Made by a program: the position numbers and the translations under genes
Source: a virus
Taxonomy: Duplodnaviria; Heunggongvirae; Uroviricota; Caudoviricetes
Direction: 5' to 3' (one strand)
IMG/VR virus record: IMGVR_UViG_2562617057_000010
Coordinates: 1-64,000 of that record
DNA: 64,000 nt
In this document: in pieces, positions 18,158 through 55,802 of the stretch
Numbering within the stretch: the stretch's first letter is position 1
Layout: each line of letters begins with the position of its first letter
The notes under the pieces: generated by a model
What the model saw: only the letters and a program-made list of their open reading frames with translations
What the model was told of the DNA's origin: nothing
Databases searched by the model: none

Positions 18158-18693
18158 AAGATGTACACTCCCACACGGCCTGCGCCCTGGATAGCACGCA
18201 GCACAAAGGCCGCTTCAGCAAGCAGGGTTTCGCGGGTGTCATTACTGTCGATATTGCTGTCGGCGTGGCGGGTGTTCACCGCCGTAAACTCACCGAGAAG
18301 ATCGGCTTTGGCGCGGGCAAAGACCGCTTTTTTGTATTGTGCGCAAAGGGCGCTTTCTCCGTTAAGTTGCGGGCCTTCCACGTCCGCCGCCTGCGCTATT
18401 CCCTGCACTACGTAGCGGGATTTCACACCGGTCAGTGCGGTGTTCACCTCAAAGATGGCAGACAATAACGCCTGTTCTGCCAGTGATGCAGGGATATCCA
18501 GTGGGATAGTTCGGCTTTTGCGAAAATCAGCCATGGACAGATCCGGCCAGAAGCCATCATTTTTAAGCATGCCTGTAGCAGTGTCTGTGTTCTGGTCTGT
18601 GCTGTAGCCTGGTTTCAGGTTCATGGCTGATTCTCTGTGTAGGTCAGGTCGGGCGAACGGTTCCGCGGCATGACTGACGCTTGTGCGTGTCAT
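18154..18693 (-). CDS. Head completion protein (gpL-like), putative
   Basis: 179 aa from ATG 18693 with GGTGAGG SD; first gene after the Mu-like insertion. Confidence 0.5.
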   Translation of the reverse strand: MTRTSVSHAAEPFARPDLHRESAMNLKPGYSTDQNTDTATGMLKNDGFWPDLSMADFRKSRTIPLDIPASLAEQALLSAIFEVNTALTGVKSRYVVQGIAQAADVEGPQLNGESALCAQYKKAVFARAKADLLGEFTAVNTRHADSNIDSNDTRETLLAEAAFVLRAIQGAGRVGVYIL

Positions 18694-18736
18694 CCTCACC
18701 GTGCCCGCCTGAAGCCGTGGGGCTTTTATGACTAGG

Positions 18737-18882
18737 TAATTTATTCAAGATAACCGGGAAGAGATTAAAAAAGACGGGAATAGATTGGAATCAACAAGTT
18801 AGGAACTCAAGGTTTTCAAGATAAAGCGAGTCCAAAAATGTTAAACGGTTCGATATCAATAAAACATTCAAGATAACTCACA
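18737..18882. repeat. Left-end transposase-binding repeats (3x ATTCAAGATAA)
   Basis: Copies at 18744-18753, 18815-18824, 18867-18876, spaced 71 and 52 bp. Confidence 0.6.
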
Positions 18883-19000
18883 GGTTCTTACAATAGCCTT
18901 TAAAGACCGTTCAAAAACGATTCAGGTGTTTATTATAGCGCTGATGGGTGCAAGCGCCAAAACCAATGTAATTTTAGCACAGCTAGGCACTTGCACTGGG

Positions 19001-19564
19001 TTATGCGCTGGCTGCTTTCTGAGGTAGATTTAAGTGATCGCCCTTAGCTTCGGACAACGCGTAAATCTCTCTAACCTTTTCGTCTGGCAAATTACCAAGG
19101 CTTAACGCTATGGCTCTACGAACTCCAACTAGAGCGTGCAACTCTTGGATGTGCTCATCCAGAAGAATGAGTAATTGCTCCGCTCCTTTTCTCCCAAGAA
19201 CATCAGCTACTTGTTGTTTTTCTTGTGGTTTAAGAAATGACAAGAACATTAGAATTTGAGCATCAACATTATCCGCATTCTCTTTTTTGGGTTCTTTGGA
19301 ATCTTTTAGTTCAACATCACCCTCTCCCGTCATGAGCCATTCCAAGGTAACATTTTCGCTTTCTGCTATCTTTTTTAACTGATGCGGGCGTGGTATCGGT
19401 GCGTAATCCCGCCTGTTGTAATAATTTTTTAAAGTGCCTTCATTGATCCCCCATGCCCGAGCAGCCGCATTTCTTGAAGGGTATCGTTCTACTAACCTAA
19501 AGATTCTTTCGATAATCGGTTCTTTTCCATCGGCAGGAAAAGAACCTTGGGGTGCTTTTCTCAT
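19001..19564 (-). CDS. Transposable-phage repressor (c-like), XRE-type HTH
   Basis: 187 aa from ATG 19564 (AGGAA SD); HTH ending TLEWLMTGEG; divergent from ner at the left end. Confidence 0.6.
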   Translation of the reverse strand: MRKAPQGSFPADGKEPIIERIFRLVERYPSRNAAARAWGINEGTLKNYYNRRDYAPIPRPHQLKKIAESENVTLEWLMTGEGDVELKDSKEPKKENADNVDAQILMFLSFLKPQEKQQVADVLGRKGAEQLLILLDEHIQELHALVGVRRAIALSLGNLPDEKVREIYALSEAKGDHLNLPQKAASA

Positions 19565-19677
19565 TCTTGGTTCCTTTCTATCTAATTCATTGATAAATAA
19601 TGAAATTAAAAAATAAACCATAAAAACACCAAAGAACCCTTTACAAGGAATCTTTGGTATCTTAATCTTTATCCATA

Positions 19678-19699
19678 CGGATATCCGACCGGATATCCG
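19678..19699. promoter_or_regulatory. Tandem palindromic operator candidates
   Basis: CGGATATCCG twice (19678-19687, 19690-19699), 30 bp upstream of ner start in the c/ner divergent region. Confidence 0.45.
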
Positions 19700-19728
19700 C
19701 GCGGGTAATTTTGTAGGGTAAAGGAAAG

Positions 19729-19980
19729 ATGAGACAAAGAGAAGATCGCGACCGCGATTGGCCTTCGCTAAAGATTCAGCTGGCGCTCAAAGATAACGGG
19801 TGGTCTTCCTTCCGGGAGCTTTCACTCCATGCTGGTTATGCTCAGGATTCACTGAAAGCGGTGGTTCGTACACCGAACAAAAAATACGAACGCGTAATTT
19901 CTGACGCTATAGGTGTACCGCCAGAAATCATCTGGCCCAGCCGGTATCGTAACGATGGATTTATCAGGAAGGCGTCGTGA
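19729..19980 (+). CDS. ner: Ner-like DNA-binding protein
   Basis: 83 aa with Ner/Nlp signature PEIIWPSRY; first gene of early operon. Confidence 0.8.
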   Translation: MRQREDRDRDWPSLKIQLALKDNGWSSFRELSLHAGYAQDSLKAVVRTPNKKYERVISDAIGVPPEIIWPSRYRNDGFIRKAS

Positions 19981-19981
19981 T

Positions 19982-53566: not shown

Positions 53567-53568
53567 CG

Positions 53569-54081
53569 TTAAATACTCCCCGCGTTATACCACGTTCCAT
53601 TAATGCAATACTGAACTGGCCTTGCCTGAGTTGTATCAATTAGTGCATCTCTGTTTGAGTTAACGGAACCGGTAACAACATAACCTGACCTGTCAGACCA
53701 GCCGGGACCATTCCATGTCTGAACAGATGACAGACCACCAAGGCGAATACCTGTAATAAACCTTGAGTTACATTCTGCCTGCGTATATGCGCCAACATCT
53801 CTCGCTGATGGCTTGCGTGTTGTGGTGTAAAACTCTGACCAGCCAGCCTCAAATCCATAACCATCACGCGCTGAACGATAAAAAATACCGCCGTTCTTAT
53901 AATTCACACGGAACTGTACAGCAGGGCAACTCCCCGTATTCATATTGAAGTGGAGTATTAATGCTGTTGCGCCTTTGATATCTGCATCATAAACACCGCT
54001 AATCAATGCAATATAGAAAACGACGATCGAATCAATTGAATCGATCGGTAATACAGATCGATTATGTCCTGATAACCACAC
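53569..54081 (-). pseudogene. Alternative tail fibre variable segment Sv' (no constant region, no adjacent gix or gin)
   Basis: ORF with tail-fibre C-terminus YCINGTWYNAGSI; 5' part overlaps the GATC cluster of the mom regulatory region, so coding extent is uncertain. Confidence 0.5.
54020..54062 (+). promoter_or_regulatory. mom upstream regulatory region with clustered Dam (GATC) sites
   Basis: GATC at 54025, 54043, 54056 within 35 bp, about 75 bp upstream of com. Confidence 0.6.
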
Positions 54082-54133
54082 TCACCCCATGATGTTTTTT
54101 AAGATAGTGGCGAATTGATGCAAAGGAGGTGAG

Positions 54134-54322
54134 ATGAAATCAATTCGCTGTAAGAACTGCAACAAACTGTTATTTAAGGCGGGTTCCTTTGATCACATTG
54201 AAATCAGGTGTCCGCGTTGCAAACGTCACATCATAATGCTGAATGCCTGCGAGCATCCCACGGAGAAACATTGTGGGAAAAGAGAAGAAATCACGCATTC
54301 TGACGAAACCGTGCGTTATTGA
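54134..54322 (+). CDS. com: Com zinc-finger translational activator
   Basis: 62 aa, CKNC...CPRC zinc finger, overlaps mom start. Confidence 0.85.
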
Positions 54323-54968
54323 GTATGAAGGCCAGATTGTTGGCTATGGTTCAAAGGAGCTGCGCGTTGAAACCATATCCTGCTGGCTGGCCCGCACAAT
54401 CATTCAGACAAAACATTACTCCCGCCGTTTTGTGAATAACTCTTACCTTCACCTGGGAGTATTCAGCGGACGTGAGCTGGTTGGCGTTCTCCAGTGGGGA
54501 TATGCCCTTAACCCCAACTCAGGTCGTCGTGTCGTGCTTGAAACGGATAACCGGGGTTATATGGAGCTGAACCGCATGTGGCTACACGACGACATGCCCC
54601 GCAACTCTGAATCACGGGCCATCAGTTATGCGCTGAAAACCATCAGATTACTGTATCCATCAGTGGAATGGGTACAGTCCTTTGCAGACGAACGCTGCGG
54701 ACGTGCTGGCGTTGTGTATCAGGCGTCAAATTTTGATTTTATTGGCGGCCATGAAAGCACGTTCTACGAGCTGGATGGCGAGTGGTATCACGAGATAACG
54801 ATGAACGCGATTAAGCGCGGTGGACAACGAGGCGTGTATTTACGGGCTAATAAAGAGCGTGCCGTGGTGCATAAATTTAATCAGTATCGCTACATCAGGT
54901 TCCTGAACAAGCGAGCAAAGAAGCGGCTAAATACTAAGCTATTCAGGATTCAGCCATATCCGAAATGA
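54243..54968 (+). CDS. mom: Mom DNA-modification protein
   Basis: ORF overlapping com 3' end, last gene before the right end; true start probably internal. Confidence 0.75.
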
Positions 54969-54983
54969 TCCCATTTAATGAAT

Positions 54984-55014
54984 AAAAAAACAGCGGTTAA
55001 TGCCGCTGTTTTAT
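54984..55014. terminator. Hairpin terminator after mom
   Basis: A-run, CAGCGG-TTAAT-GCCGCTG, T-run. Confidence 0.65.
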
Positions 55015-55089
55015 CTTGAATAACTTCCATATGCGCGCTTCTGGCTTATCTTGAATGATTTCCATATCTATCTTGAATAATTTTCCGCG
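55011..55089. repeat. Right-end transposase-binding repeats (3x TTATCTTGAAT)
   Basis: Copies at 55011-55020, 55046-55055, 55068-55077; reverse complement of the left-end motif, closely packed. Confidence 0.6.
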
Positions 55090-55100
55090 CTTTACTTTCG

Positions 55101-55802
55101 TTATACCGCCCGTAATGCGCGCAGACGGGCGGCTATTTTGTTTCGTATGGCGCGAACACCTGCTTTGGGAGTGGTGCTGTGCGCACGGGCCATCCACTCA
55201 TCGGCGCTACGTAGTTTCGCCACGTCGTAAATGGCGGCCGGGGTTGTCGGTTTGCCATCGCTGTCCCGTAACAGGTTAAGACCGGCGAATTTGTACCATC
55301 TGGCAACTATCTCTTCGTGCAGTGTCCAGTCTTTTTCGATATGGCTCATCACGCGGCTGAAATAGGGCTCGACGGAAAGGCCTTTATCAAACTGAATCTG
55401 TGCCCACTGCATGACCTCATCGGCGACGAACGTTGGCAAATCACGGTCAAAGCGTGGTGGCATGGGTTGATTCTGTCCGATGGCGATATCGGCCCATTCC
55501 AGAGCTTTGTCCATTTCGCCGGTATCAAACAGCCAGACGATGCACCAGGTAAACGGGATGTATTTGTACTCCTCGCCGCTTTGCAGCCACGCCTCAATCG
55601 TCGGCATCCAGCGCGGCAGCAGGGATTCACGCTTGAATGCCACACGATCGGCGTTGGTGGCGCAACTGCTCACAGCCCTGCAGTCGATTTCCAGTTGCGC
55701 CAGTTGCAGATGAAGACTGTCGCGTACGGTCAGTGCCTCGCGGTGTTCCATTGCCTGCTGCGCGGCCAGTCTGGCTCTGAACTTTTGCGCCGGAGTCTGC
55801 AT
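55101..55802 (-). CDS. M: Terminase small (endonuclease) subunit, P2 gpM-like
   Basis: 233 aa; stop lies 7-12 bp from the Mu-like right end. Confidence 0.7.
   Translation of the reverse strand: MQTPAQKFRARLAAQQAMEHREALTVRDSLHLQLAQLEIDCRAVSSCATNADRVAFKRESLLPRWMPTIEAWLQSGEEYKYIPFTWCIVWLFDTGEMDKALEWADIAIGQNQPMPPRFDRDLPTFVADEVMQWAQIQFDKGLSVEPYFSRVMSHIEKDWTLHEEIVARWYKFAGLNLLRDSDGKPTTPAAIYDVAKLRSADEWMARAHSTTPKAGVRAIRNKIAARLRALRAV

Follow-up and report, generated by a model that had tools for sequence, protein, structure and literature searches.

A Mu-family prophage with TA termini and a 4-bp target duplication in the M–L spacer of a P2/HP1-family prophage of Escherichia coli

The window analysed here is the whole 64,000-nt stretch at positions 1 to 64,000 of IMG/VR record IMGVR_UViG_2562617057_000010, a single strand of DNA assigned to the Caudoviricetes, and it holds one prophage nested within another. 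A Mu-family prophage of 36,368 bp, delimited by alignment to empty sites, occupies positions 18727–55094, where it splits the spacer between the M and L genes of a P2/HP1-family prophage of Escherichia coli. The features that define the locus are these:

18727–55094, plus strand: Mu-family transposable prophage, termini 5'-TATGACTAGG...GCGCTTTA-3', boundaries from empty-site alignment
18723–18726, no strand: left copy of the 4-bp target-site duplication CTTT, present once in empty sites (GGGGCTTTCGTT)
55095–55098, no strand: right copy of the 4-bp duplication CTTT, from empty-site alignment and BLAST block overlap
55101–55802, minus strand: M, small terminase (Pfam Phage_term_smal)
55814–56863, minus strand: N, capsid (Pfam Phage_cap_P2)
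56912–58024, minus strand: O, scaffold (Pfam Phage_GPO)
18625–18726, minus strand: portion of the M–L spacer kept with L, 102 of 104 bp, 63% GC
3863–18624, minus strand: part of the late operon severed by the insertion, with L first and HP1_ORF34 baseplate genes last
58182–61383, plus strand: divergent genes for P (large terminase, Pfam Terminase_5), Q (portal, Pfam Phage_portal) and a putative activator resembling Ogr/Delta

A first-pass annotation, made from the sequence alone, had proposed that a Mu-type genome was inserted between M and L and that related prophages would have these two genes contiguous. Both proposals were borne out. Six complete E. coli genomes (FDAARGOS_943, CFSAN029787, VL40, VL46, RMDEC332 and RMDEC364) carry a P2-like prophage that is 99% identical to that of the window, in which M and L are contiguous and CTTT occurs once at the site. 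We used the empty-site sequence GTGGGGCTTTCGTTATA for alignment (fuller context ...GTGGGGCTTTCGTTATACC...). At the left junction of the window, ...GTGGGGCTTT passes directly into TATGACTAGG..., and at the right junction ...CCGCGCTTTA is followed by CTTTCGTTATACC.... A BLAST comparison of the window with the uninterrupted prophage gave two blocks that overlap by exactly 4 bp. On its two sides, the host DNA flanking the insertion matches the uninterrupted FDAARGOS_943 prophage at 99.4% and 96.8% identity, and both junctions coincide with the exact conserved termini of the element. These observations support transposition of a Mu-type prophage into the M–L spacer of a P2-family prophage. In the mechanism that we propose, a DDE transposase (A) and a MuB-type ATPase would have joined the element to the 104-bp spacer, duplicating four base pairs (CTTT). 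The same junction had no match among 5,426 complete E. coli genomes, a set that does not include the window's strain.

The empty-site alignment also fixes the distances to the neighboring genes. The end of the element lies 6 bp from the M stop codon, rather than the 7 to 12 bp estimated from the sequence alone. On the other side, it lies 102 bp from the ATG at 18624, which is the L start chosen by the annotation pipeline PGAP in related genomes. The earlier estimate of about 30 bp holds only if L starts at GTG 18699 or ATG 18693, giving a separation of 27–33 bp. Similarity of the longer ORF to other L proteins begins only at residue 38–45, and a longer start is still possible.

Each end of the element carries an array of short repeats:

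18727–18880, plus strand: left end, three direct TTCAAGATAA repeats (18744, 18815 and 18867), putative transposase-binding sites L1–L3
55008–55094, minus strand: right end, three repeats (55068–55077, 55046–55055 and 55011–55020), putative sites R1–R3

The exact 10-mer TTCAAGATAA occurs five times in the window, always within 150 bp of an end of the element, and the left and right sets are inverted with respect to each other. The outermost putative site is 17 bp from the terminus at both ends. Inverted arrays of this kind, here with three putative TTCAAGATAA binding sites per end, are as found in Mu-type phages; the last 74 bp of the right end are of a non-Mu type.

We asked whether the four-base duplication was peculiar to this copy. 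The same termini (TATGACTAGG...GCGCTTTA) occur at six further insertion sites in unrelated loci: in FDAARGOS_943, in VL40 (in a T6SS vgr gene), in STEC346 (in an alanine racemase gene), in RM9088 (in nrfA) and in two IMG/VR contigs. All six are flanked by perfect 4-bp repeats (GAAA, TTCA, ATTC, TAAG, GATA and AGGA), and agreement at the fifth base is no more frequent than expected by chance. Thus, seven of seven insertions with this type of end, the window's included, have a 4-bp duplication, or nine of nine paired insertions when two Sp18-like elements are counted. For the latter, Mu phages inside Stx phages, the depositors of GenBank entries LC727881 and LC727895 annotated 4-bp duplications; that of LC727881 is ambiguous (GATGATG context), and LC727895, with an unambiguous AGAG duplication and TG...TA termini, settles the length at four. 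The same method applied to a canonical Mu prophage, that of E. coli W, returned TG...CA termini and a 5-bp GCCGC duplication. The window element thereby has the hallmarks of a Mu-type insertion (unrelated sites, a short duplication and a demonstrable empty site) without the 5-bp duplication and 5'-TG...CA-3' termini of Mu itself, having 4 bp and TA...TA. The isolated Yersinia phage vB_YpM_5 (TATG...GCGCGCTTTA) has termini of the same TA type. Because the features recur in the other insertions, the Mu control differs, and vB_YpM_5 has TA termini, the 4-bp duplication and TA ends are best read as a property of this transposase lineage and not as damage to the window copy. Shifting the boundaries by 1–2 nt to regain TG/CA ends or 5 bp was tried and rejected, as such shifts fit only a minority of the seven insertions (two of them individually ambiguous). 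Our literature searches found no paper on 4-bp duplication by Mu-like phages or on the TA termini; the only records found were the repeat features in the two GenBank entries.

The unusual ends are accompanied by an equally distinct regulatory and transposase region:

19001–19564, minus strand: repressor c of non-Mu type (phrog_3037), no match to Mu c
19729–19980, plus strand: ner-like early regulator (HTH_35), 35% identical to Mu Ner
19982–22087, plus strand: transposase A, 701 aa, with DDE core, Mu-transpos_C and a Mu-type C-terminal tail (ERDEYLNHSLDILEQKRRKK)

Two stretches have no nucleotide similarity to Mu: the left 3.2 kb, which spans c, ner and all but a small part of A, and the final 74 bp of the element. 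They are 95% and 89% identical, respectively, to a prophage of VL40. A pair formed by A and a MuB-type ATPase, downstream of a divergent repressor and ner, is the Mu-type arrangement, and A itself is recognizable as a transposase (phrog_310 in PHROGs, E 4e-194; Pfam Mu-transpos_C and a weak Mu N-terminal helix-turn-helix match, HTH_Tnp_Mu_1). The A protein is 93% identical to that of VL40, 82% identical to that of vB_YpM_5 and only 24–28% identical to MuA. It is not close to MuA across the DNA-binding and catalytic domains, and only its last ~25–35 residues are nearly identical. In a PDB sequence search, the catalytic core resembled those of retroviral integrases, and MuA was not retrieved; alignment predicts D311, D377 and E417 as the DDE residues. 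No similarity of the Mu kind was detected between the repressor and the N-terminus of A.

Alignment of A proteins separates three modules: an N-terminal segment of ~195 residues, the core and the C-terminal tail. The N-terminal segment differs between the window and vB_YpM_5, co-varying with the sequence of the end sites, and the core is conserved within the clade. The tail, encoded by the 3' end of A (21974–22087), is of Mu type (ERDEYLNHSLDILEQxRRKK) in both the window and vB_YpM_5, each of which also has a Mu-type B. VL40 has a different A tail, and its B is without nucleotide-level similarity to that of the window. As the type of tail co-varies with the type of B, the comparison points to joint exchange of the A tail and B, as a unit. 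In Mu, the C-terminal tail of A is the contact for MuB and ClpX.

Downstream of A, the element is built on a Mu chassis:

22122–23075, plus strand: MuB-type AAA+ transposition protein, 74.5% identical to MuB (Pfam Phage-MuB_C and AAA)
23075–29628, plus strand: semi-essential early region and middle/late regulators (kil, gam, gemA, mor, C), gp19 absent
29720–50962, plus strand: lysis, head and tail genes (lys to gp48), full length, 90–100% protein identity to Mu
50962–54081, plus strand: G segment with S, U, inverted U' and truncated S', in the S/U-expressing orientation
54134–54968, plus strand: com and mom, both proteins 97% identical to those of Mu

From B (22122) to mom (54968), with the exception of gp19 and gin, the Mu genes are full length and without stop codons, at 74–100% protein identity to Mu. 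The late region is 96–97% identical at the nucleotide level to Mu, D108 and PhiR68_1 over 98% of its length, and its genes follow the Mu order and encode proteins 90–100% identical to those of Mu, S excepted (79%). Two ORFs without a Mu counterpart (25126–25731, phrog_2260; 26951–27274, phrog_1988) occupy positions typical of variable cargo. A 1.1-kb deletion, corresponding to Mu 34502–35613 and with its junction at ~53981–54004 in the stretch 53569–54243, leaves the element with very little of gin, no right gix site and an S' that lacks its N-terminal part. In the comparison with Mu, gin had no match in the element and the region of the right inversion site was missing; the element thus lacks the invertible arrangement of a G segment with Gin and two gix sites. 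Because gin and the right gix are deleted, the G segment is locked in the S/U orientation, with host range fixed to the S/U set. The element had been called a complete and apparently intact Mu-type genome, and that description applies from B to mom, apart from gin, the right gix, part of S' and gp19; likewise its assignment to the Mu type is right for the chassis and not for c, ner, A and the ends, which are not Mu's own. Overall, the element appears able to transpose and build virions, with its tail-fibre inversion switch deleted. We also observed that the Mu gene U (52570–53018, plus strand) shares 449 bp, at 90% identity and inverted, with the tail-fibre assembly gene of the P2-like prophage (~6930–7378, minus strand), through which the nested prophages might recombine or exchange fibre modules.

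A likely source for the non-Mu portion is at hand. FDAARGOS_943 and VL40, two of the strains in which the P2-like prophage is uninterrupted, each carry, elsewhere in the chromosome, a transposable prophage that matches the left end of the window element over its first 374 bp with 100% identity, and whose late genes are different and not of Mu type. The window element therefore looks like a recombinant of a lineage of the FDAARGOS_943/VL40 type with a Mu-type phage. As we picture it, this natural mosaic would have taken its B-to-mom chassis from Mu and its c, ner, A and both ends from another transposable-phage lineage of E. coli, whose transposase would use TA rather than CA termini and a 4-bp stagger on joining target DNA, while the C-terminal tail of A would have stayed of Mu type, in keeping with its Mu-type partner B. 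We lean, by a modest degree, towards a fuller version of this proposal: that the c-ner-A-ends cassette represents an uncharacterised transposase clade, shared by E. coli prophages, Sp18-like elements and vB_YpM_5 and marked by an integrase-like DDE core with 24–28% identity to MuA, TA termini and a 4-bp stagger, and that it was grafted onto a Mu chassis at breakpoints that kept the Mu-type A tail together with the Mu-type B. If true, this would be a natural domain swap, in which the interface for activation by B and for disassembly is movable between transposases that differ in end specificity and joining geometry. The family is highly mosaic, and the isolated vB_YpM_5 has the same general architecture. 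Since the same A core goes together in this phage with a tail and a B of Mu type, with late genes of Mu and with TA termini, the architecture is, by this comparison, viable.

The interrupted prophage belongs with the P2 family by several features: Q and P diverge from O, N, M and L, and the scaffold, capsid, small terminase and head-completion proteins are of P2 type. Pfam matches uphold the first-pass reading that O, N and M lie on the minus strand and that the operon resumes from about 18.6 kb downward. The severed part begins with L (Phage_GPL, head completion; ends at 18154), an R-like tail terminator (P2_Phage_GpR), a tail completion gene, a DUF2586 sheath-like gene and an HP1_Orf24 tube gene, and continues with holin, lysozyme, a lysis protein, a chaperone, tape measure, baseplate, fibre and HP1_ORF34 baseplate genes. 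Compared with the annotations of HP1 and P2, the gene order after L is that of HP1 orf20–orf27 and not that of P2. The label P2-like was thus apt for the gene families and not for the gene order, and the element is best called a P2/HP1-family prophage. Its Ogr/Delta-like protein scores 23.5 bits against Pfam Ogr_Delta, where the cut-off is 26.3, and PGAP calls a near-identical protein ogr/Delta-like. A gene for a gpA-type replication endonuclease is present and is cut by the end of the window. The closest isolated relatives have genomes of 29–30 kb, and the best L homologues in isolated phages are ~49% identical. Three large ORFs at 3863–6744 were considered as a defence system and ruled out: PADLOC found no defence-system match among them, and Pfam assigns them to HP1-type baseplate proteins. 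Elsewhere in the window, an IS3-family insertion sequence of 1,308 bp (793–2100) lies just downstream of a cluster of tRNA-Gly, tRNA-Cys and tRNA-Leu genes (152–454). FDAARGOS_943 lacks it in a region that is otherwise 99.4% identical, and insertion sequence copies in Stx phages match it at 99.5% identity.

The position of the insertion predicts an effect on late expression of the P2-like phage. Transcripts from M would now run antisense into the right end of the Mu-family element, where they meet the following structure:

54987–55012, no strand: hairpin (10-bp stem, flanked on each side by T/A runs), resembling an intrinsic terminator on the minus strand for transcripts from M

The hairpin (minimum free energy -14.5 kcal/mol, z -3.56), followed by the U-run UUUUUUUAUU, lies ~85 nt into the right end for transcripts leaving M. 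In the annotation of P2, transcription of O, N, M, L and onward to S begins at one start site, and M and L are 99 nt apart. In the window, no gaps separate the genes from L to the tail-fibre assembly gene, which leaves the M–L spacer, on this gene layout, as the only candidate place for an internal promoter. A consensus promoter scan of this spacer (63% GC) gave zero promoter-like matches, and its sole terminator-like hairpin is on the wrong strand. The late-promoter motif of P2, TGT-N12-ACA, was absent from the O–P region (58025–58181), the M–L spacer and all intergenic gaps, a result that is uninformative on a promoter for L; late activation in this prophage group may rely on signals other than those of P2. 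The gapless gene order, the lack of a promoter-like match in the spacer and the hairpin met by incoming transcripts make it probable that late transcription no longer reaches L or the tail, lysis and baseplate genes downstream: between them and the promoter of the O operon now lie 36 kb of antisense DNA, with a terminator-like hairpin at the start. Whatever the expression, the insertion would more than double the length of the prophage genome: with 36.4 kb added to a phage whose nearest isolated relatives are 29–30 kb, it should exceed the capacity of a P2-type capsid. From the predicted polarity and the genome length, the P2-like phage most likely no longer makes particles. To our knowledge, Mu-type prophages do not excise, and the interruption would therefore be effectively permanent.

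The account of the junctions has two competitors. The first-pass annotation had described a 5-bp duplication, GCTTT, with one GCTTT copy expected at the empty site. GCTTT is indeed present at 18722–18726 and 55089–55093, and the E. coli W control confirms that canonical Mu produces 5-bp duplications, but the right GCTTT falls inside the conserved terminus GCGCTTTA common to all copies at other loci, host DNA restarts at 55095 in the empty-site alignment, and the empty sites read a single CTTT as the duplicated unit. The left GCTTT is host DNA, the right one is the Mu right terminus, and the real duplication is the 4-bp CTTT. A 5-bp duplication altered by one mutation would require that one and the same position be mismatched in the window, in at least four other insertions of this end type (two insertions are ambiguous) and in LC727895, and we regard a five-base duplication, canonical or mutated, as highly improbable. 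An assembly artefact, such as a chimeric join of two separate prophages through repeats, draws what plausibility it has from the 449 bp of 90%-identical tail-fibre-assembly sequence common to both. That repeat is far from the junctions, however, and both junctions fall at conserved terminal nucleotides flanked by a 4-bp target duplication, a signature of transposition and not of misassembly; there is very little chance that the join is spurious.

Two further alternatives concern function. The insertion might be largely neutral for gene expression in the P2-like phage, with L and the genes beyond it still expressed from an activator-dependent promoter in the retained 102 bp or from a promoter in the left end of the Mu-family element. 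Only 6 bp separate it from the M stop, at the far upstream limit of the spacer, and 102 of 104 bp stay with L; the left end has an outward-facing promoter-like site; and the late-promoter motif of this phage group may be another than that of P2, TGT-N12-ACA being missing even from the O–P region. Weighed against this are the GC-rich spacer with no promoter-like match, the comparable 99-nt M–L gap that P2 accommodates inside a single O operon, and the length of the roughly doubled genome, which even with expression would be too long for packaging between cos sites, since P2 capsid capacity limits the length of genome packaged. We consider continued expression of the P2-like genes unlikely. It is also rather unlikely that the Mu-family element is a dead remnant, immobilised by its TA termini and the deletion of gin. 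The loss of gin and one gix and the non-canonical termini would favor this, the terminal CA being important in MuA chemistry. Against it, TA termini are found at seven different insertion sites and in the plaque-forming vB_YpM_5, gin is dispensable for transposition and growth, the remaining genes are intact, and the duplication is perfect, within the closely matching flanks described above.

Some points count against parts of our interpretation. The polarity and the defectiveness of the P2-like phage are plausible deductions from sequence, and a promoter in the 102 bp retained upstream of L is possible. In the left end of the Mu-family element, downstream of the repressor gene, a sigma-70-like site faces L (18960–18932, minus strand, TTGGCG-17-TATAAT, 10 of 12 matches); sigma-70-like matches are no more frequent here than in shuffled sequence, and the site, if active, might support weak expression of L together with the tail and lysis genes. 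TA termini are an exception to the CA rule of Mu-type transposases, and the transposition activity of the window copy is judged from its sister copies. The exact mosaic of Mu chassis and c-ner-A-ends cassette was absent from the 5,426 complete genomes, and the P2-like prophage has its early end beyond 64000 and its integrase, immunity region and att sites outside the window. Taking all of this together, we assign a probability of roughly 88% to the explanation as a whole: a Mu-family prophage of mosaic make-up inserted by transposition, leaving the host P2-like phage most likely disabled.

The insertion of one prophage into another is real but fairly ordinary, a further instance of a documented phenomenon, as Mu-like phages inside prophages are already on record; the 4-bp duplication is the unusual detail. 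The locus offers a clean case, backed by empty sites, of one temperate phage apparently knocking out another, and it adds a case rather than a concept. For annotation, automated tools would report a single ~70-kb prophage or split it wrongly, and the P2-like phage should not be counted as intact. The transposition module is the most interesting thread, although it is peripheral to the insertion itself: a Mu chassis with a non-MuA transposase, TA termini and 4-bp duplications would lend itself, as a natural comparison, to the questions of how the geometry of the transpososome determines the stagger and how the A tail pairs with B.

Comparison with known systems places both elements. The window element shares with Mu and D108 its gene order and content from B to mom, the A–B pair, three end sites per side, mor, C, com and mom; in contrast, no DNA-level relationship extends to its c, ner, A or either end, Mu has TG...CA termini and 5 bp, and the window element is without gin, one gix and gp19. 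The isolated Muvirus phages of Yersinia, vB_YpM_5 and vB_YpM_6 (MT374853 and MT374854), resemble it in the A core (82% protein identity), the Mu-type A tail and B, the Mu late genes and the TATG...GCGCGCTTTA termini, and differ in the N-terminal ~195 aa of A, in the end site (TTTGATAC versus TTCAAGATAA in the window) and in having an invertase gene. On the side of the host prophage, both HP1 and P2 (Peduoviridae) share the divergence of Q and P from O, N, M and L, a gpA-type replication endonuclease and, as a candidate only, an Ogr/Delta-like protein; HP1 also shares the order L, R, orf22, sheath, tube, holin, lysin and tape measure, and P2 differs in that the O–P region of the host prophage lacks TGT-N12-ACA. 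Mu-type phages insert nearly at random, and nesting inside other mobile DNA has been recorded before. In CC119 Shiga toxin-producing E. coli (STEC), six of ten Mu-like phages lie within mobile elements, Stx prophages included (PMC10132054, Nakamura et al. 2023). The Mu-like phage Sp18 is reported to be packaged, yet not inducible by mitomycin C (PMC2669165), and for this reason mitomycin C, which the first-pass annotation had suggested for induction, would be a poor choice for a Mu-type element. The Sp18-like phages of STEC likewise include transposable phages inside a prophage, with 81% nucleotide identity in the A core, a 4-bp duplication and a right terminus of TA; they differ from the window element in their TG left terminus, in their end sites and late genes, and in residing in a lambdoid prophage rather than one of the P2/HP1 type.

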